From Gammaproteobacteria bacterium (GTDB lineage: Bacteria; Pseudomonadota; Gammaproteobacteria; Arenicellales; Poriferihabitantaceae), in NCBI GenBank assembly GCA_047639475.1, contig JBLIOD010000010.1:1454-65453 (forward strand): DNA of 64,000 nucleotides, read 5' to 3'. Below the pieces are notes generated by a model. The model was given only the letters and a program-made list of their open reading frames with translations. It did not search any database and was not told the DNA's origin. How positions within the stretch are numbered: the first letter of the stretch is position 1; every line of letters starts with the position of its first letter. Both the position numbers and the translations under genes were made by a program. Below, in pieces: positions 2,471 to 26,560 of the stretch.

Positions 2471-3493
2471 ATGTTATTCAGTATTCAACTTTCCGCCTAT
2501 TATCCTGACCGTAACTACGGTGGTGATCGCATCTATCAGGACATGCTCGAGCAAGCCGTGCTGGCTGACACACTGGGTTATGACGCGGTGTCTATTACCG
2601 AACACCACCTCATCAATATCCTGATGATGCCAGCGCCGCTACAATTCGCCGTGAAAATCGCTTCAATGACCAAACAGGTTAAGATCCTCACCAGCGTGAC
2701 CGTATTGCCATTACATGATATGAGAACTTACGCAGGGGAAGTTGTCTGCGCAGACATTTTCACAGACGGGCGCCTGATGTTAGGCGTGGGCCGCGGCGCC
2801 TTTGGATTTGAGATGGATCGTCTCGGTGTGCCGCTGAGCGAAAGCCGTGAAAAATTTGACGAATCACTCAATGTGCTACAAGCACTGCTCAATGAAGAAG
2901 AAGTGTCCTGGGATGGAAAATATTATCAATTTGAGCCCCTCACTGTTATGCCTCGACCAGTGCGTGAAATCCCTATCATGATGGGTGTTCTGGTTCCAGA
3001 AGCCATATACCACTGCACCAAACGCGGCTTTCACATTCAAACCACCCCTCTATCTGGCAGCAACCAGCATATGCTCGACCAAGTCGATGCCTTTAACCGT
3101 GGCAAGGCTGCGCTAGGTAAGGCAGGGGAACACTTGAGTCTGTCGTTATCACGCCTCTGCTTTGTATCGACCAGCGAGGCTGACCGCAACAAGAAAATAC
3201 AATTAGCGCATGATTACTATGGGCAATTCGATAACGTATTTACCGGGCCTGGTATTGTGAACAACGGCGTAATTAAACCCATGCCCCGAGAAATGACTAT
3301 AGACCAAACTGCTGAGAACTTAACCATTTGCACCACCAACGAAATGATTGATAAGCTTGGCATGTACGCAGAAGCGGGCGTCGACCGCTTTATCATGAAC
3401 GTGAATTTTGGCGTCAGCCAGACTGAAACACTAGAATCTATACAAATTTTCGCCGAAGAGGTGATGCCTCATTTCAGCAAAAGTACCACTTAA
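2471..3493 (+). CDS. LLM-class (luciferase-like) flavin-dependent monooxygenase
   Basis: TEHH motif, GRLMLGVGRGA, C-terminal FAEEVMPHF. Confidence 0.92.
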   Translation: MLFSIQLSAYYPDRNYGGDRIYQDMLEQAVLADTLGYDAVSITEHHLINILMMPAPLQFAVKIASMTKQVKILTSVTVLPLHDMRTYAGEVVCADIFTDGRLMLGVGRGAFGFEMDRLGVPLSESREKFDESLNVLQALLNEEEVSWDGKYYQFEPLTVMPRPVREIPIMMGVLVPEAIYHCTKRGFHIQTTPLSGSNQHMLDQVDAFNRGKAALGKAGEHLSLSLSRLCFVSTSEADRNKKIQLAHDYYGQFDNVFTGPGIVNNGVIKPMPREMTIDQTAENLTICTTNEMIDKLGMYAEAGVDRFIMNVNFGVSQTETLESIQIFAEEVMPHFSKSTT

Positions 3494-3515
3494 TGAATCG
3501 TAGCTAAAAACTAAA

Positions 3516-3713
3516 ATGCCTATTATCAGAGTAGAAATGTTCACAGGACGCTCGCGCGATCAAAAACGTGAACTCGTTAAAGAACTAACCGACACCTTTA
3601 TCCGCGTGGCGGGCGGTAAGCCGGAAACGGTTACCGTTGTTATCACTGACGTCGAGAAAGAAAACTGGGGCAGTGGTGGCAACCTAGTGGTTGATAGATT
3701 TCCAGGCGAATGA
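3516..3713 (+). CDS. 4-oxalocrotonate tautomerase family protein
   Basis: 65 aa, N-terminal catalytic Pro (MPIIRVEM..GRSRDQKRELV), NWGSGG. Confidence 0.92.
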   Translation: MPIIRVEMFTGRSRDQKRELVKELTDTFIRVAGGKPETVTVVITDVEKENWGSGGNLVVDRFPGE

Positions 3714-4483
3714 CAGCGGTAGATTGTGCTTATACCATCAGCGGACATGGCCCCGCGCTATACATGGTGCATGGCATTGGCTCTCGAAAAACCACTTGGG
3801 ATGGACTGGTACCAGAGCTTGAAAAACACTTTACTTGTGTACGCTATGATTTACGTGGTCATGGCGAAAGCCCCATTCCACAAACCCCCTATAGCCTGGA
3901 CCAATTGGTAGAAGACTTAGAGGCTTTACGCGCCAAATTAGGGCATTCGAAAATTCATGTTGTCGGCCACTCTTTAGGCGGAATGATTGGCCCTGCTTAC
4001 GCCAAAACCCATCCAGACAAAACGCTTAGTGTTGGCCTACTTAGCACCGCTGCCGGAAGGACAGAAGAAGACCGCAGCAAGCTGCAAGGGGTATATCAAG
4101 CCATGCTGGATAAAGGCATCATCCCCATACTTAGTACCTTAATTGAACGCTGGTACACCGATGACTTTATTGAAAAGCGCCCCGATCTTATCGAGGCACG
4201 CTTACAACAAGTTAGAGACACACCTGACGGCGTGTTCTTAAGCGTTTTCGATATTTACGCCACCACTGAAATGGCGCCTTGGTTACATGAAATAAATTGC
4301 CCCTGTTTGGTACTTACGGGCGAACTTGATGGCGGTTGCAATCCCCGGTTAAACAAGTTTATACACTCACAGCTGCCTAACTCAGAACTCGTTATTTTAG
4401 ATGGGATTAAACACTCAATATTGGTGGAAACGCCAGATAGGGTTCTACTGAGGCTTAAACAATTTTTACAACTTAATTCTTAG
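3710..4483 (+). CDS. Alpha/beta hydrolase (enol-lactone hydrolase-like)
   Basis: HGIG, YDLRGHG, nucleophile GHSLGG, C-terminal His (IKHSIL); ATGA overlap with the tautomerase. Confidence 0.92.
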   Translation: MTAVDCAYTISGHGPALYMVHGIGSRKTTWDGLVPELEKHFTCVRYDLRGHGESPIPQTPYSLDQLVEDLEALRAKLGHSKIHVVGHSLGGMIGPAYAKTHPDKTLSVGLLSTAAGRTEEDRSKLQGVYQAMLDKGIIPILSTLIERWYTDDFIEKRPDLIEARLQQVRDTPDGVFLSVFDIYATTEMAPWLHEINCPCLVLTGELDGGCNPRLNKFIHSQLPNSELVILDGIKHSILVETPDRVLLRLKQFLQLNS

Positions 4484-21174: not shown

Positions 21175-22407
21175 TTAAAAACTTCCCTTAAACCAACTCT
21201 TCATCCGACTCAACACATCGGATAATTTGCTGCTTCTCAGTTGCTTGCTCTTCTTAGAGCTTTGCTCTTTATGACCGAATTTCACCAGGCCAGTGCCCGT
21301 TGCAAAAATCGGGCTTAATACCACTTCACTCAAGCTACCTTCGTATTTTGGTAGGCCCAAGCGAACAGGCATATGAAAAACTTCTTCTGCTAACTCGACC
21401 GCATTCTCTAGCTTTGAACTGCCGCCTGTTATCACGATTGAATTGACTATTTCTTCAAAGCCACTGCGCCTTAGCTCACCTTGTGCAAGTACAAATATTT
21501 CTTCCATTCGCGGCTCAATCACTTCCGCCAAGTTGTATCTTGATAACTTGCGTGAAGGCTTACCTCCTATGCTCGGCGCTTCAACACTTTCAGCGGCACC
21601 CACTTGACTGGCCAGTGCACAACCATATTTTTTCTTCAAATCTTCTGCTGCTTGAGTAGGCGTCTGTAAGGCAATGGCGATATCATTGGTGACTTGGTCG
21701 CCTGCGATTGGAATTACCGAGGTATGCTTTATCGTGCCACCATGGAATATGGCGATGTCTGTTGTTCCACCACCAATATCAATCATGCAAACCCCTAAAT
21801 GTCGCTCATCATCAGTTAACACTGATTCGCTTGATGCTAGTTGCTCTAAGATAATGTCATCTACTTGCAGACCACAGCGTTTAATACATTTAATAATGTT
21901 CTGTGCTGAACTTACAGCCCCGGTAATGATATGCACCTTTGACTCCAAACGTACGCCGCTCATGCCCAGTGGCTGTCTCACCTCGTCTTGGCCATCAATA
22001 ATGAAGTCTTGCGGCAATACATGAAGTATTTGTTGGTCTTTGGGTATCGCCATGGCTTGCGCTGCTTCAATGACCCTATCAACATCATCTTGACGCACTT
22101 CCGCATCTCGAATAGCGACCACGCCATGTGAATTAAAGCTATTGATATGGGCACCTGCTATCCCTGCATAAACAGAGAATATTTGGCAACCTGCCATCAA
22201 TTCAGCTTCTTCCACAGCGCGTTGAATAGATGACACAGTCGATTCAATATCGGCCACTACGCCGCGACGCAACCCCTTTGACGGATGATGACCCACACCA
22301 ATAATTTCTAATTTGCCTTCGTCGTTTTGCTCTGCAACGATAGCCAGCACTTTTGAAGTACCTATATCTAAGCCGACGATTAAATTGCTATCAGTTTTCT
22401 TAACCAT
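21175..22407 (-). CDS. ftsA: Cell division protein FtsA
   Basis: GLDIGTSKV, DIGGGTTD, C-terminal amphipathic SWFKGSF. Confidence 0.99.
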   Translation of the reverse strand: MVKKTDSNLIVGLDIGTSKVLAIVAEQNDEGKLEIIGVGHHPSKGLRRGVVADIESTVSSIQRAVEEAELMAGCQIFSVYAGIAGAHINSFNSHGVVAIRDAEVRQDDVDRVIEAAQAMAIPKDQQILHVLPQDFIIDGQDEVRQPLGMSGVRLESKVHIITGAVSSAQNIIKCIKRCGLQVDDIILEQLASSESVLTDDERHLGVCMIDIGGGTTDIAIFHGGTIKHTSVIPIAGDQVTNDIAIALQTPTQAAEDLKKKYGCALASQVGAAESVEAPSIGGKPSRKLSRYNLAEVIEPRMEEIFVLAQGELRRSGFEEIVNSIVITGGSSKLENAVELAEEVFHMPVRLGLPKYEGSLSEVVLSPIFATGTGLVKFGHKEQSSKKSKQLRSSKLSDVLSRMKSWFKGSF

Positions 22408-22416
22408 GTCGCGTGT

Positions 22417-23211
22417 CTATTGTTGTGTCTCTTTAGTTTGCGGTGCCCACTTAATGGAAAAACCGCTTGAATAACGTAAATCAACCCGTTCGATACCCCT
22501 GGGGTGCTCAATTAAACTTTGTCGAATACTTTTCAAAAAGCTGTCTAGTTGCGCAGACGAATTAGCCTCTAGCAATATCATTTCAAATGGCGCTCGCCGC
22601 ATTTTCCCTAGCACTTCAACTTGTAGCGTCCACAAGTGTTGAGCGCTTAATTTCACTGATACTAAGCGTAAGCCTTGATTTGAAAACGCAGACGCCCAGG
22701 CTTGGTATTGTCCGTATATATAGTCATGCTGATCAGCTTGGCCAGACAAAGTAGGTAACCACACGGTCTTCACTAAAGGCAGTTCAGCCAGCTTGCCTTT
22801 AGTCGTGAGTAACTTGTCTTCTCCCCACCGTGCTATCGGCTTGTGTTCCGTAACATCAATCATTAATGTGTCCGGCCAGCGGCGCCTAATGCTCACTTCA
22901 TCGACCCAAACAAATTCATCCATCGCTTGCTGAATGGCGGCCATATCAATGGAAAAATAATTCCCCGCCAATGCCTTCACCACTGCCTCCTTTAATAAAG
23001 CTTCGTCTACATGCTGTGGGTTGCCTGACAAAGCCACTTTTTTCAATTGAAAACCAGTGGGCTGATACAGTCGATCGACCAATAATCCTGTCGTCAATCC
23101 CACGATTGCCAAAGTAGTAATCCCTATCAGCACGCGAATAAAGCTGCCATTTTTGCTCGACTCGAGTTCAGCAACCCTTCCGTTTTGCACGCTAGCCGTT
23201 ATTGAATTCAC
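22417..23211 (-). CDS. ftsQ: Cell division protein FtsQ
   Basis: TM segment, POTRA domain (WVDEVSIRRRWPD), VDLRYSSGFSI. Confidence 0.93.
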   Translation of the reverse strand: MNSITASVQNGRVAELESSKNGSFIRVLIGITTLAIVGLTTGLLVDRLYQPTGFQLKKVALSGNPQHVDEALLKEAVVKALAGNYFSIDMAAIQQAMDEFVWVDEVSIRRRWPDTLMIDVTEHKPIARWGEDKLLTTKGKLAELPLVKTVWLPTLSGQADQHDYIYGQYQAWASAFSNQGLRLVSVKLSAQHLWTLQVEVLGKMRRAPFEMILLEANSSAQLDSFLKSIRQSLIEHPRGIERVDLRYSSGFSIKWAPQTKETQQ

Positions 23212-24110
23212 GTGCGCTCTCCAACAAAATTAATCAATGAATGCAGTTGCACATCAAATTTCTGTTTAACCATACGTTGCCCATAACCAACTAACGCTTC
23301 GACATCGGACACACTAGACCTATTTGATAGAGCCAATTCATTAGGCGAACGCCTATCAAAAGCAGCGCCCCCTAAGGCGTATCCCGCTAGGCCACACTCT
23401 TGTAATAAAGAGGCTGGATTCACCTGACTAGATGCATGATAAATACCGGTTGAGGTACTTTTCCCAGTAAAGCGACTTGGCATATTTTTAAATAGCAACA
23501 ACGCCTTATTTCGCTTGGTCTGTTGCTGTTTAAATTCGAATTCAGCACCGACAATCCAAGCTTGCTTTTTCGGGTCTGCGCACCCCAGTAGCTGCGGTAC
23601 TCGCGACATCTCACACCAAATCAAGTCACCATCGCGATTAACGCATTCCAGCTGTTTGATTGATGCCCATTTATCCTCTTCTACAGCGCCCATCGCCAAT
23701 GCACCGCCCAAGGTACCGCTCGATAAGCTTAAGAACTCAAGTTCTTCAAAGCCTTTATCTGACATGTATCTCGCCAATGTCGCGTTGTCTGCACCTGCTT
23801 CAGCATAAAACCGCTTATCACCCAACGGCCGTATAACTGCTAGTCCCACACGTGTACTGAGTGTGACGCCCTTAATCCCACCATCTCGCACCAGAGTATT
23901 GTTTCCACTGCCTAGCCACGTGATAGGGATATTCCCTGGTAATTGACACATCAATTGCACCACGCTGGTTTTTCCAGACGCGGAAAAATAGCATTGCGCT
24001 GTTCCACCCATGTTCCAACGAGAGTGTTTGCCCATCGGCTCATTGCGCGACAAGGTTCCTTCTATGCCATCTAAGAAGCTACCAATACTGTGTTTCTTTG
24101 TACTAAACAT
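23208..24110 (-). CDS. murB: Highly degenerate MurB-like protein, catalytic motifs lost
   Basis: Located between murC and ftsQ. NEPMGKH..W.MGG, WLGSGNNTLVRDGG and AEAG are recognisable, but IPG, MNAGA, YR, GSxFxNP, HANF and the C-terminal Glu are absent. Confidence 0.8.
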   Translation of the reverse strand: MFSTKKHSIGSFLDGIEGTLSRNEPMGKHSRWNMGGTAQCYFSASGKTSVVQLMCQLPGNIPITWLGSGNNTLVRDGGIKGVTLSTRVGLAVIRPLGDKRFYAEAGADNATLARYMSDKGFEELEFLSLSSGTLGGALAMGAVEEDKWASIKQLECVNRDGDLIWCEMSRVPQLLGCADPKKQAWIVGAEFEFKQQQTKRNKALLLFKNMPSRFTGKSTSTGIYHASSQVNPASLLQECGLAGYALGGAAFDRRSPNELALSNRSSVSDVEALVGYGQRMVKQKFDVQLHSLINFVGERT

Positions 24111-25494
24111 GTGAACTCTCAGCAATCAGTGACTGCGCGTAACGCCCTATATCACCTGCCCCCAAACACAACAGCACATCGTTTTGTTTTATTTGGTGGG
24201 CAATTATTGAGCTGGCCTCTTCAAAATTTTCTACAAAAACCACCTGCCCACCCCTAGCCCGTATCGCATTGGCTAGCGCACGGCCGTCGGCACCCACACG
24301 GGGTGTTTCTCCCGCTCCGTATACTTCCAGCAAAATCAAGTTTTCTTGTTCGCCCAAGACCTTGGCGAAATCATCAAACAATTCTTGCGTCCGTGAATAG
24401 CGATGAGGCTGGAATAAAGTAATGATGTTTCTATCGGGCCAACAGTCTTTGGCCGCTTCAAAGGTAGCCGAAAGTTCACGAGGGTGGTGAGCATAGTCGT
24501 CAACGACTAAGGCTCGTTTGGTGTCACTAAAAACAGCATCGCCCAAGATGCTAAATCGTCGAACTATGCCCTTGAACTCTAGCAGTGCATCTCGCACATC
24601 TTGATCCTTTACACCCAGTTTGGATGCAATCGCAATCGCCACTAATGCGTTCAGTACGTTGTGTTTACCCGGCATCGCCAACGAAAACTGACCCACATTT
24701 ATTCCGTGTCTCACTACGTCGAAATGGCTGATGTGACCGTCTTGACGAAAGTTGGCTGCCTGTATATCAACATCATCATCAAAGCCGTATGACAAAATCC
24801 GGCGGTTAATTTTCTGCGCCACTTCCCGCACAACAGGGTCGTCAAAACACAAAATCGCCAGACCATAGAACGGCAGTTTATGCAAAAACTGTACAAAGGT
24901 ACGCTTTAACTTCGCAAAACTATTCTCATAGGTTTGCATGTGGTCGTAGTCAATATTGGTAACAGCTGCAATAGTAGGTGTCAGCTGCAGAAAAGATGCA
25001 TCGCTCTCATCAGCTTCCGCGACCAATATTTCACCTTGACCCAAGCGTGCATTGGAATCCACACTATTCACAATACCGCCGATGACAAATGTAGGGTCTA
25101 AACCTGCTTTTATTAACACACTAGAAACTAAACTAGTGGTTGTCGTTTTACCGTGCGTACCGGCAATGGCGATGCCTTGGCGAAAGCGCATCAGTTCACC
25201 TAACATTTCCGCTCGCGGTACCACTGGGATTTTGTTTTTGCGTGCAGCAGCCACCTCAGGGTTGTTCTTGTCGACCGCGCTAGAGGTCACCACCACATCA
25301 GCATCTTGACTGTTCTGCTCAACATGGCCAATCATCGTCTTAGCGCCTAATCTTGCAAGGCGTTGTAAAGCCGGACTATCACGCAAATCAGAGCCTGTCA
25401 CTTTATAGCCTTGCTCTAATAACACTTCCGCAATGCCGCTCATTCCGATGCCGCCCATGCCAACAAAGTGAATATGTTTTACAAACTCACGCAT
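24103..25494 (-). CDS. murC: UDP-N-acetylmuramate--L-alanine ligase
   Basis: GMGGIGMSGIA, GTHGKTTT, EADESD, DDYAHHP, FQPHRYSRT. Confidence 0.98.
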   Translation of the reverse strand: MREFVKHIHFVGMGGIGMSGIAEVLLEQGYKVTGSDLRDSPALQRLARLGAKTMIGHVEQNSQDADVVVTSSAVDKNNPEVAAARKNKIPVVPRAEMLGELMRFRQGIAIAGTHGKTTTTSLVSSVLIKAGLDPTFVIGGIVNSVDSNARLGQGEILVAEADESDASFLQLTPTIAAVTNIDYDHMQTYENSFAKLKRTFVQFLHKLPFYGLAILCFDDPVVREVAQKINRRILSYGFDDDVDIQAANFRQDGHISHFDVVRHGINVGQFSLAMPGKHNVLNALVAIAIASKLGVKDQDVRDALLEFKGIVRRFSILGDAVFSDTKRALVVDDYAHHPRELSATFEAAKDCWPDRNIITLFQPHRYSRTQELFDDFAKVLGEQENLILLEVYGAGETPRVGADGRALANAIRARGGQVVFVENFEEASSIIAHQIKQNDVLLCLGAGDIGRYAQSLIAESSHV

Positions 25495-26560
25495 CTAACA
25501 CCTCCATGCAAACATCTGCCACTGCTTCAGTAGCGTTTAAGCGTGCGTGTTGTTGGGCTTTCTCAGCCAGGGCTATAATTTTTGTACGGTCTGTCGCATA
25601 AGAAGCTAATTGCTCAACCCAACTACCTTTCTCAAATTCCGGCTGTCGATAGCAAAGCGCTGATTGATCGGCTGCTAACTCTTGGGCGTTGAACCATTGG
25701 TGATCATCTATCGCATGCGGATAAGGCACAAACAAGGCCGCCACGCCTGCCGCTGCCACTTCCGAAACAGTCATTGCGCCGCTCCGACAAATAACAAAAT
25801 CAGCCCACTCGTAAGCTCTTGGCATATCGTTTATGAATTCTGACACCTCACACTCCAGCGCCAGTTCTTCATATAAGCTTTCTACAGGTGCGTTTCGCCC
25901 CTTACCAGACTGATGGCGAATAGTTATCGGGGTTGAATCAGATAGGGTTTTCAACAACGCAGGCAAAAACTCATTAAACACCTGTGCGCCCAAACTGCCG
26001 CCAACGACTAATAGCCGTAAGGCACCTTCGCGACCAGACAACCGCTCAGCAGGCGCATCCAATGCCTTCATAGCCGGCTTTACCGGGTTGCCCGTGTGTA
26101 GATTGCTGTCAATTCCTTTGGCTTGACTAAACCCAGACAACTTCTTCAACGCTTTACTAGCGAGTATTTTGTTGGTCGTGCCCGCAATGGCATTTTGTTC
26201 ATGGATAATAAGCGGTTTGCGCAGTATCCATCCCACTAAACCGCCCGGCCCCGATGCAAATCCGCCCATGCCCAGCAAGGCGGTGGCCCGGCTACTGATG
26301 ATGATGATTAACGCTTGAAACGCGGCACTTATGAGTACAAATGGCGCCACCAGTTTTCGCATCACCCCGGTACCACGCAACCCTTTGATATTAATAAAGC
26401 GCAATTCAAAACCAGCTTCAGGCACTAAGGTAGACTCAATCCCATTGCGTGTGCCCATCCAAACAATGCGCACTCCTCGATCTCGCAATTCTTTCGCCAC
26501 GCTCAAAGCGGGGATTACGTGCCCGCCTGTACCACCCGCCATCACTAACAAAGTCTTCAT
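25487..26560 (-). CDS. murG: Undecaprenyl-PP-MurNAc-pentapeptide GlcNAc transferase
   Basis: GGTGGH, HEQN, GGSLGA, RSGAMTVSE. Confidence 0.98.
   Translation of the reverse strand: MKTLLVMAGGTGGHVIPALSVAKELRDRGVRIVWMGTRNGIESTLVPEAGFELRFINIKGLRGTGVMRKLVAPFVLISAAFQALIIIISSRATALLGMGGFASGPGGLVGWILRKPLIIHEQNAIAGTTNKILASKALKKLSGFSQAKGIDSNLHTGNPVKPAMKALDAPAERLSGREGALRLLVVGGSLGAQVFNEFLPALLKTLSDSTPITIRHQSGKGRNAPVESLYEELALECEVSEFINDMPRAYEWADFVICRSGAMTVSEVAAAGVAALFVPYPHAIDDHQWFNAQELAADQSALCYRQPEFEKGSWVEQLASYATDRTKIIALAEKAQQHARLNATEAVADVCMEVLDA

Follow-up and report, generated by a model that had tools for sequence, protein, structure and literature searches.

MurB, which reduces UDP-N-acetylglucosamine-enolpyruvate (UDP-GlcNAc-enolpyruvate) in the cytoplasmic Mur pathway, is treated as a plain essential enzyme and antibiotic target. 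Short-type (type II) enzymes are represented in the Protein Data Bank (PDB) by entries such as 4PYT, 1HSK from S. aureus and 3TX1 from Listeria, and type I enzymes of the E. coli kind, which carry a characteristic insertion, by 1MBB and 2Q85. Here we describe a murB-like gene from a 64,000-nucleotide stretch of DNA (the window; GenBank assembly GCA_047639475.1, contig JBLIOD010000010.1, positions 1,454 to 65,453) of a gammaproteobacterium of the order Arenicellales. The gene occupies the murB slot of the division and cell wall (dcw) cluster, and its product is homologous to short-type MurB along its whole length while lacking the catalytic Arg, Ser and Glu. An earlier note on this DNA had proposed a candidate pseudoenzyme with the reduction done by another MurB or a non-orthologous enzyme, a proposal that is supported by the second MurB, the purifying selection and the loss of catalytic residues documented below.

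Among described systems the nearest parallels come from other enzyme families. CspC and CspA of C. difficile are pseudoproteases, examples of bacterial pseudoenzymes that act by binding, and the degenerate LytM factors EnvC and NlpD activate amidases. Like the murB-like protein these are conserved homologues of enzymes without catalytic residues; their regulatory roles, however, have been demonstrated, whereas the murB-like protein is known here from sequence and has its parent enzyme in the cytoplasmic Mur pathway. A search of the open-access literature returned no description of a catalytically dead MurB, nor of a pseudoenzyme of that pathway. Natural MurC-MurB fusion proteins (chimeras) and a proposed Mur multi-enzyme complex are described in passages of PMC10214165, and such fusions suggest a physical coupling of MurB and MurC; the fused MurBs are catalytic, whereas in the present case the two proteins are encoded in separate frames that overlap by 8 nucleotides. 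The murB2 gene of Corynebacterium glutamicum is a second MurB paralogue and is essential, according to the part of PMC9671496 that deals with it. That genome holds two murB genes, as here, but nothing in those passages suggests that murB2 is catalytically dead.

The gene under study, in the genome of the window (G000), is

23208..24110, minus strand: murB-like open reading frame of 300 codons followed by a TGA stop at 23208-23210, encoding a short-type (type II) MurB homologue without catalytic residues

and in the parts listed below residues of its product are counted from the ATG at 24110. The uninterrupted frame of about 300 amino acids that the earlier note had reported is thus indeed present, and the alignment along the whole short-type MurB that it had made by eye holds up in every comparison. 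Pfam domains FAD_binding_4 (7e-11; FAD, flavin adenine dinucleotide) and MurB_C (8e-8) are both recognized, the NCBIfam model PRK13905 (NF010480) matches at 5e-40 with residues 17-304 aligned to profile positions 8-301 of 303, and residues 18-299 are matched by the sequences of 4pyt, 1hsk and 3tx1 with E values of about 1e-20. An AlphaFold2 model computed from 34 homologues has a mean predicted local distance difference test score (pLDDT) of 84.1, with values below 50 only at residues 1-4 and 200-219. When this model is searched with Foldseek the top 18 matches are all MurB, so that the predicted three-domain fold appears to be that of the short-type enzymes (TM scores of 0.70-0.81, the highest to 4PYT). 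A model built from the five sequences of its own clade (see below) reached a pLDDT of 56 and is uninformative because the alignment is so shallow. The protein also sits in the same position after murC in the dcw cluster as short-type MurB does in 34 of 41 genomes of the order. It departs from short-type MurB in the absence of the catalytic Arg, Ser and Glu and of the KHANF and GSxFxNP motifs, in a MNAGA loop that is 2 residues shorter, and in its failure to reach the equivalog cut-offs. The stretches concerned, together with the best-kept part of the protein, are

23898..23912, minus strand: GSGNN replacing GLGSN, residues 67-71, the glycine motif of the FAD domain with G67 and G69 kept
23676..23729, minus strand: SLSSGTLGGALAM/GAVEE replacing AGIPGSFGGAVAMNAGAYGG, residues 128-145, with a 2-residue deletion after M140 that is common to the clade members
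23577..23588, minus strand: LGCA where canonical MurB has Y-R-H-V, residues 175-178, catalytic Arg lost
23430..23450, minus strand: TGIYHAS replacing GSVFKNP, residues 221-227, Gly in the catalytic Ser column
23337..23351, minus strand: RSPNE replacing KHANF, residues 254-258
23232..23246, minus strand: LHSLI replacing LEPEV, residues 289-293, Leu in the catalytic Glu column
23931..23963, minus strand: VVQLMCQLPGN, residues 50-60, spanning part of helix 47-56 of the model and about 80% identical to canonical congeners, the best-kept stretch

Every motif change listed in the earlier note (at GSN, GIPG, MNAGA, YR, GSxFxNP, KHANF and LxxEV) is recovered when the protein is aligned with the canonical MurBs of congeneric species, in which AGIPGS corresponds to SLSSGT here, MNAGA to M--GA and YRH to nothing. 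In this protein Gly stands in the columns of the catalytic Arg and Ser, and Leu in that of the Glu. Across 195 full-length short-type homologues the Arg column is occupied by Arg in 190, the Ser column by Ser in 169 (Cys in 18) and the Glu column by Glu in 185, and the 2-residue gap in the MNAGA loop, a loop kept in 189 of the 195, is found in the four proteins of the clade only. Chance would not be expected to give such a contrast. We take the Arg and Glu to be residues numbered 159 and 325 in the E. coli enzyme. Ser229 is given as a key residue of E. coli MurB in part of PMC10058398 and is also named in the title of PDB entry 1UXY. Two observations on the wider family may be recorded here. 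The 18 short-type MurBs with Cys for the catalytic Ser (P0061, P0066 and P0082, for example) keep Arg and Glu and may represent a natural active-site variant, and in the 294-residue short-type representative P0083 the catalytic Ser is replaced by Glu and the catalytic Glu by Arg.

Profile scores indicate where the erosion has fallen. The murB-like protein scores 137.2 bits against PRK13905/NF010480 (cut-off 259) and 75.9 bits against TIGR00179 (cut-off 144.5), below both, and the clade members as a group reach 134-173 bits on the short-type model as compared with 359-367 bits for their canonical congeners. The MurB_C score drops to 30-42 bits in the clade from 112-115 bits in canonical congeners, while FAD_binding_4 is little lowered (42-53 vs 55-68 bits), so that the loss is concentrated in the C-terminal substrate-binding and catalytic domain. 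In the murB-like protein itself the FAD-motif glycines are kept and FAD_binding_4 scores 42.4 bits against a cut-off of 26.4, but the MNAGA loop has lost 2 residues and GSN has become GNN. Describing the protein as catalytically gutted, as had been done before, is therefore apt for the Arg, Ser and Glu but overstated for the FAD site. When the 300 positions are compared between the clade and its canonical congeners 57 are invariant in both groups, 11 are fixed differences and 24 are invariant in the clade but variable in the congeners; residues 1-60 are best kept and constraint has been lost most at 61-145 and 196-230.

The earlier note had suggested a search for another murB in the genome, and one is readily found. 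A type I MurB of 344 amino acids is encoded on another contig (G000:C1:71523-72554), with intact YRDS, NAGSFFKNP and EIEP motifs and a score of 406.6 bits against an equivalog cut-off of 277. It belongs to the same superfamily as the dcw copy, to which it is weakly similar, but differs from it in carrying the type I insertion, in having all catalytic motifs intact and in its location beside alkB-like and greB-like genes. The same arrangement, murB followed by an alkB-like and a greB-like gene, recurs in the congeneric genomes G007 and G003, so that in three genomes with a degenerate dcw copy another gene can cover the catalytic job; in G000 it is presumably this type I enzyme, given its sequence, that performs UDP-GlcNAc-enolpyruvate reduction. 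No type I MurB was found in the five congeners with a canonical dcw murB. In the sample of the order type I also occurs in G027, G034 and G040, three genomes from two other families, all of which are without the short type and in which murC is followed directly by ftsQ (G027, G040) or by ddl and then ftsQ (G034). The murB slot can therefore be empty. In a phylogenetic tree the type I proteins of the clade form one group (support 99/96) apart from those of the other families of the order, and their nearest named relatives are from Cellvibrionales at 46-51% identity. The alkB-like gene that adjoins type I murB in G000, G007 and G003 is found in the canonical congeners G004 and G001 at a distance of about 6-10 kb from the dcw murB, indicating that this region has been rearranged between the two subclades.

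To place the degenerate form among its relatives we have made use of 9 species genomes of the genus, 41 genomes of the order and 151 genomes of the class, the last with one genome per family. Within the genus it is found in 4 of the 9 species (G000, G007, G003 and G002), where the proteins are 44-58% identical to one another and 33-38% identical to those of the congeners, while the remaining five (G004, G008, G005, G006 and G001) have a canonical murB in the same slot between murC and ftsQ. A public contig encodes a fifth degenerate protein, P0004, and the catalytic and substrate motifs are lost in all five. Across the order 34 short-type MurBs score 339-374 bits, and the only short-type matches below the cut-off are the four clade members, at 134-165 bits. 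A profile of the clade run against 1.84 billion representative proteins returns two clade representatives at 515-534 bits and nothing else above 189 bits, a gap that confines the form to one small clade; a scan of JGI metagenomes for closer relatives yielded one distant locus only, at 31% identity.

Since the four genomes form a single clade, sister to the canonical congeners, in trees of both MurC (99/99) and FtsQ (92/93), the degenerate state arose once. In the MurB tree a branch of about 2.9 changes per site (1.45 and 1.48 on either side of the midpoint root) sets the clade apart from the remaining MurBs, whereas the stem of the clade has a length of 0.14 in the tree of MurC and of 0.53 in that of FtsQ, and terminal branches are 0.33-1.2 for degenerate copies as compared with 0.065-0.29 for canonical ones. 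The stretch VQLMCQLPGN is specific to the genus and kept in degenerate and canonical forms alike, yet its synonymous sites vary across the genus, a pattern that speaks for vertical descent and for constraint acting on the protein; a DNA-level element as the cause of its conservation is rejected on the same grounds. Horizontal acquisition of the degenerate gene was likewise considered and rejected, given the slot shared with congeners, the genus-specific motifs and a clade that matches those of the MurC and FtsQ trees. On the evidence of these sequence comparisons the dcw murB-like gene is the genus's own vertically inherited short-type MurB.

Is a gene that has diverged to this extent still under selection? 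The earlier note had called for dN/dS values from orthologues. Pairwise Nei-Gojobori estimates were of no use, with dS incalculable or larger than 2 for nearly all pairs, and codon-model fits were used instead for this reason. For murB the fitted omega is 0.093 in the degenerate clade and 0.051 in the canonical congeners; the corresponding values are 0.034 and 0.038 for murC and 0.146 and 0.097 for ftsQ. With dS saturated these are rough as absolute values, although omega = 1 is rejected for the degenerate copy with 2dlnL = 304 and all measures of selection agree. Both halves of the protein are constrained (omega of 0.083 for residues 1-195 and 0.117 for residues 196-300), and when dN is compared over identical pairs of genomes it amounts to 0.33-0.53 in the degenerate copy, 0.10-0.16 in murC and 0.26-0.44 in ftsQ. 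The p-distances at codon positions 1, 2 and 3 of the degenerate copy are 0.40, 0.30 and 0.64. In a simulation of neutral evolution the share of runs that keep a frame of 300 codons open is 1.8% at 0.1 substitutions per site and at most 0.15% at 0.2 or above, and the degenerate copies are still open at observed Jukes-Cantor (JC) distances of 0.53-0.71. Because omega, the asymmetry between codon positions and the kept open frame agree, neutral decay is excluded, and the selection that the earlier note had suspected from the open frame is confirmed. That note had set against its own proposal the combination of a canonical murB at this position in close relatives and neutral evolution of this copy; the former is indeed the situation in the 5 congeners named above, but neutral evolution is not seen. 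Two of the properties expected of a pseudoenzyme are thus found, loss of catalytic residues in an enzyme homologue and purifying selection after the loss, the strength of the latter being approximate on account of saturation.

Public sequencing runs provide little additional information at this level. The window is matched wholly or in part by 24 runs, 13 of which contain at least half of its words (ice and seawater metagenomes), and in the 4 runs that were compared by way of Logan contigs no differences occur inside the murB-like reading frame, too little for a ratio of nonsynonymous to synonymous polymorphism (pN/pS). The sole differences, in runs X13 and X14 at a depth below 5, are a T-to-C change in ftsQ (23199) and a C-to-T change in murC (24241). 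RNA runs are not among the 24.

Degenerate dcw MurBs are seen in other lineages as well. In the class sample 110 of the 151 genomes have a canonical short-type MurB, 31 have type I only, 6 have a short type that is fragmentary or slightly below the cut-off, 2 give no match at the thresholds used, and 2 (G000 and G153) combine a clearly degenerate short type with type I; the tallies include the unpublished genomes G158 and G080, counted as canonical only. Just 1 of the 110 also carries type I. This is G113, an assembly of 290 contigs with 2% contamination in which both copies exceed their cut-offs (short type C199:4499-5377, 398.8 bits; type I C178:1617-2612, 396.2 bits), and it could represent an early stage or contamination. 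Applied to the class table, Fisher's test yields p = 0.0005, or p = 0.018 when G000 as the prompting case is left out, values that are descriptive only as there are two cases. In G153 the order of genes is murC, a degenerate MurB of 284 amino acids, ddl and ftsQ (L088, C147:6600-11500, frame 1867-2838), and an intact type I MurB lies on another contig (L089, frame 1023-2048). Its degenerate protein has GTGCN, a remodeled MNAGA loop, no YR, a deletion before the Ser motif, DDANY, and LERQV for LEPEV. It shares 72% identity with P0137 but no more than 23-28% with the proteins of the G000 clade, and the event is for this reason taken to be independent. A milder case is provided by the Chitinivorax-like genomes G041 (labeled Chitinivorax; L044, frame 2938-3903) and G042 (L045), whose betaproteobacterial dcw MurB, from the 35-member cluster of P0142, has Ser changed to Arg, Glu to Asp and MNAGA to QNSGC while the MurB_C score is still high. 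The first of these genomes has an intact type I MurB (L087), and the second has a further MurB_C match that is cut at the end of a contig. For this pair dN is 0.176, dS is 1.01 and omega is 0.17; G043, a relative at 56% identity, has a single canonical MurB.

The immediate neighbors of the murB-like gene, within a dcw cluster that is complete and tightly packed from the ftsI region to ftsZ, are

24103..25494, minus strand: murC, 463 amino acids, with a TAG stop that shares 8 nucleotides with the murB-like ATG
22417..23211, minus strand: ftsQ, 264 amino acids from GTG, with a start that overlaps the murB-like stop as GTGA

The longest open frame of the murB-like gene extends over 23208..24125 (minus strand, 305 amino acids) from a TTG, but the ATG at 24110 is the likely start because the orthologues all begin MF(S/A/T) there and a GAGAG motif resembling a Shine-Dalgarno sequence lies 5 nucleotides upstream. 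This motif and the start/stop overlaps are retained in all four clade genomes, and the overlaps with murC and ftsQ are present in the canonical congeners too. The 8-nucleotide overlap with murC is as previously described, while the junction with ftsQ, given before as ATGA, is in fact GTGA within ACGTGA, the GTG being the start of the longest ftsQ frame. Over 22000-25600 no sigma-70-like promoter was found on the coding strand, and a scan of this interval for promoters and terminators gave nothing above shuffled expectation. In G000 and its relatives ddl is absent between murC/murB and ftsQ, and a D-Ala-D-Ala ligase is encoded on another contig (G000:C3:49275-49892).

We favor, with a probability of roughly 0.55, an explanation in which the dcw copy is a pseudoenzyme that was freed by type I MurB and has been kept for a non-catalytic role, probably the binding of a partner. 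In the ancestor of the four-species subclade type I MurB would have taken over UDP-GlcNAc-enolpyruvate reduction, after which the catalytic Arg, Ser and Glu, along with most of the motifs that contact the substrate, would have disappeared from the dcw copy in a burst along the stem. Its product would have remained a folded, translated, MurB-shaped protein under purifying selection ever since, acting through binding, most likely by way of its N-terminal FAD-type half including the genus-invariant helix VQLMCQLPGN. From the sequence data we infer that the protein is catalytically inactive, is expressed and binds a partner, which might come from the wall-precursor or division machinery encoded nearby. 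MurC would be the first candidate, judged by the order of the genes, by translational coupling and by the natural fusions of MurC with MurB in other organisms (PMC10214165).

Several observations weigh against this explanation. MurC as the partner is a guess, and the omega values that argue for a retained function are, as noted above, rough in absolute terms. On terminal branches the degenerate copy outpaces MurC by a factor of about 3-7, as compared with 1-1.6 for canonical copies, variation has appeared in the clade at 84 positions that do not vary among its canonical congeners, and the position comparison between the two groups reveals no new constellation of conserved polar residues that would mark a binding or active site. 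The loop of residues 200-219 is poorly modeled. In G002 a degenerate copy is present and a type I MurB was not found; this assembly is 89% complete and lacks the alkB-like neighbor as well, so that nothing is concluded from it about type I. Finally, the orthologue in G007 (L015, reverse strand) has a 1-nucleotide deletion after residue 36, about 100 nucleotides into the gene and following the WNVGG codons, that shifts the reading frame between the first 36 residues and the 264 that follow, and the record annotates a 249-residue product from an internal Met at MCQLPGN (P0005). The deletion may be an assembly error, or the lineage may tolerate loss of the N-terminus. Frameshifts of this kind do occur in assemblies, since in G079 and G191, which belong to the class sample and have short-type MurB only, the sole MurB is likewise split into two adjacent pieces.

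Much of what has just been listed is also what would be expected of a relic without a function of its own that is eroding slowly and is kept as a translated spacer coupling translation of murC to that of ftsQ, with selection acting only against stops, frameshifts and products that misfold or aggregate. The overlaps preserved in all four clade genomes and in canonical congeners, the lack of a sigma-70-like promoter in the interval scanned, the roughly 4-fold acceleration in rate with its 84 newly variable sites, the frameshift in G007 and the poorly modeled loop can all be accommodated in this way. Yet an omega of 0.09, below the 0.146 of ftsQ in the same genomes, is far tighter than expected from avoidance of misfolding alone, and constraint extends over both halves of the protein. 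In addition, a spacer is in principle dispensable, as lineages with type I only join murC directly to ftsQ, and the same retention has occurred at least 2 further times, independently. We consider this account unlikely, although it is one to be reckoned with.

It is, in our estimation, likewise unlikely that the protein is still a flavoprotein with a new activity, one in which the FAD half has been kept and the remodeled C-terminal domain serves another substrate or a redox- or ligand-sensing function. The small decrease in the FAD_binding_4 score and the invariance of G35, G36, A38, G67, G69, G135 and A137 across 34 aligned MurBs, the murB-like protein included, speak for such an activity, as do purifying selection on the C-terminal domain after it was remodeled and the conserved motifs TG(I/L)Y, PN(E/Q/D)L and INFVG that are specific to the clade. 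Against it, the deletion and accompanying changes strike the MNAGA loop that nearly all homologues keep, R33 beside the GG loop has become N, most of the residues that have become fixed in the clade are hydrophobic, and the family is limited to a small clade. A still-working MurB that uses other residues and is redundant with the type I enzyme is highly improbable. In its favor, the complete fold is predicted, the 18 of the 195 homologues with Cys for the catalytic Ser point to some plasticity, and the incomplete G002 assembly contains no other MurB, but the Arg, Ser and Glu are all gone together with the His of KHANF and the Asn of GSxFxNP, the MurB_C score has collapsed and all equivalog cut-offs are failed.

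A broader version of the pseudoenzyme explanation is possible but doubtful, namely that the short dcw MurB has a second role independent of catalysis in the wall-precursor or division machinery, for instance docking by its N-terminal half to MurC or to some other dcw product, and that separation-of-function alleles, without an active site but retained by selection, arose at least three times wherever type I took over the chemistry. The lineages that this tentative version has in view are the present subclade, that of G153 and P0137, and the milder Chitinivorax-like betaproteobacteria.

The recurrence of dead MurBs in other lineages makes them the more interesting, and there is a practical side in that clade members and the look-alikes of other lineages are named, or would come to be named, UDP-N-acetylmuramate dehydrogenase by similarity, so that pathway reconstructions could count the wrong gene. 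Should the gene prove to be a spacer it would be a clear example of operon architecture slowing the loss of a gene. If the explanation that we favor is true, the long retention of a MurB without an active site in a division and wall operon implies a structural or regulatory job of the MurB fold, and this would be relevant to a debate of long standing, on whether the Mur enzymes of the cytoplasm operate as an assembled complex. The dead copies would then serve as ready probes, as whatever they still bind would be a candidate for a non-catalytic interaction of normal MurB.

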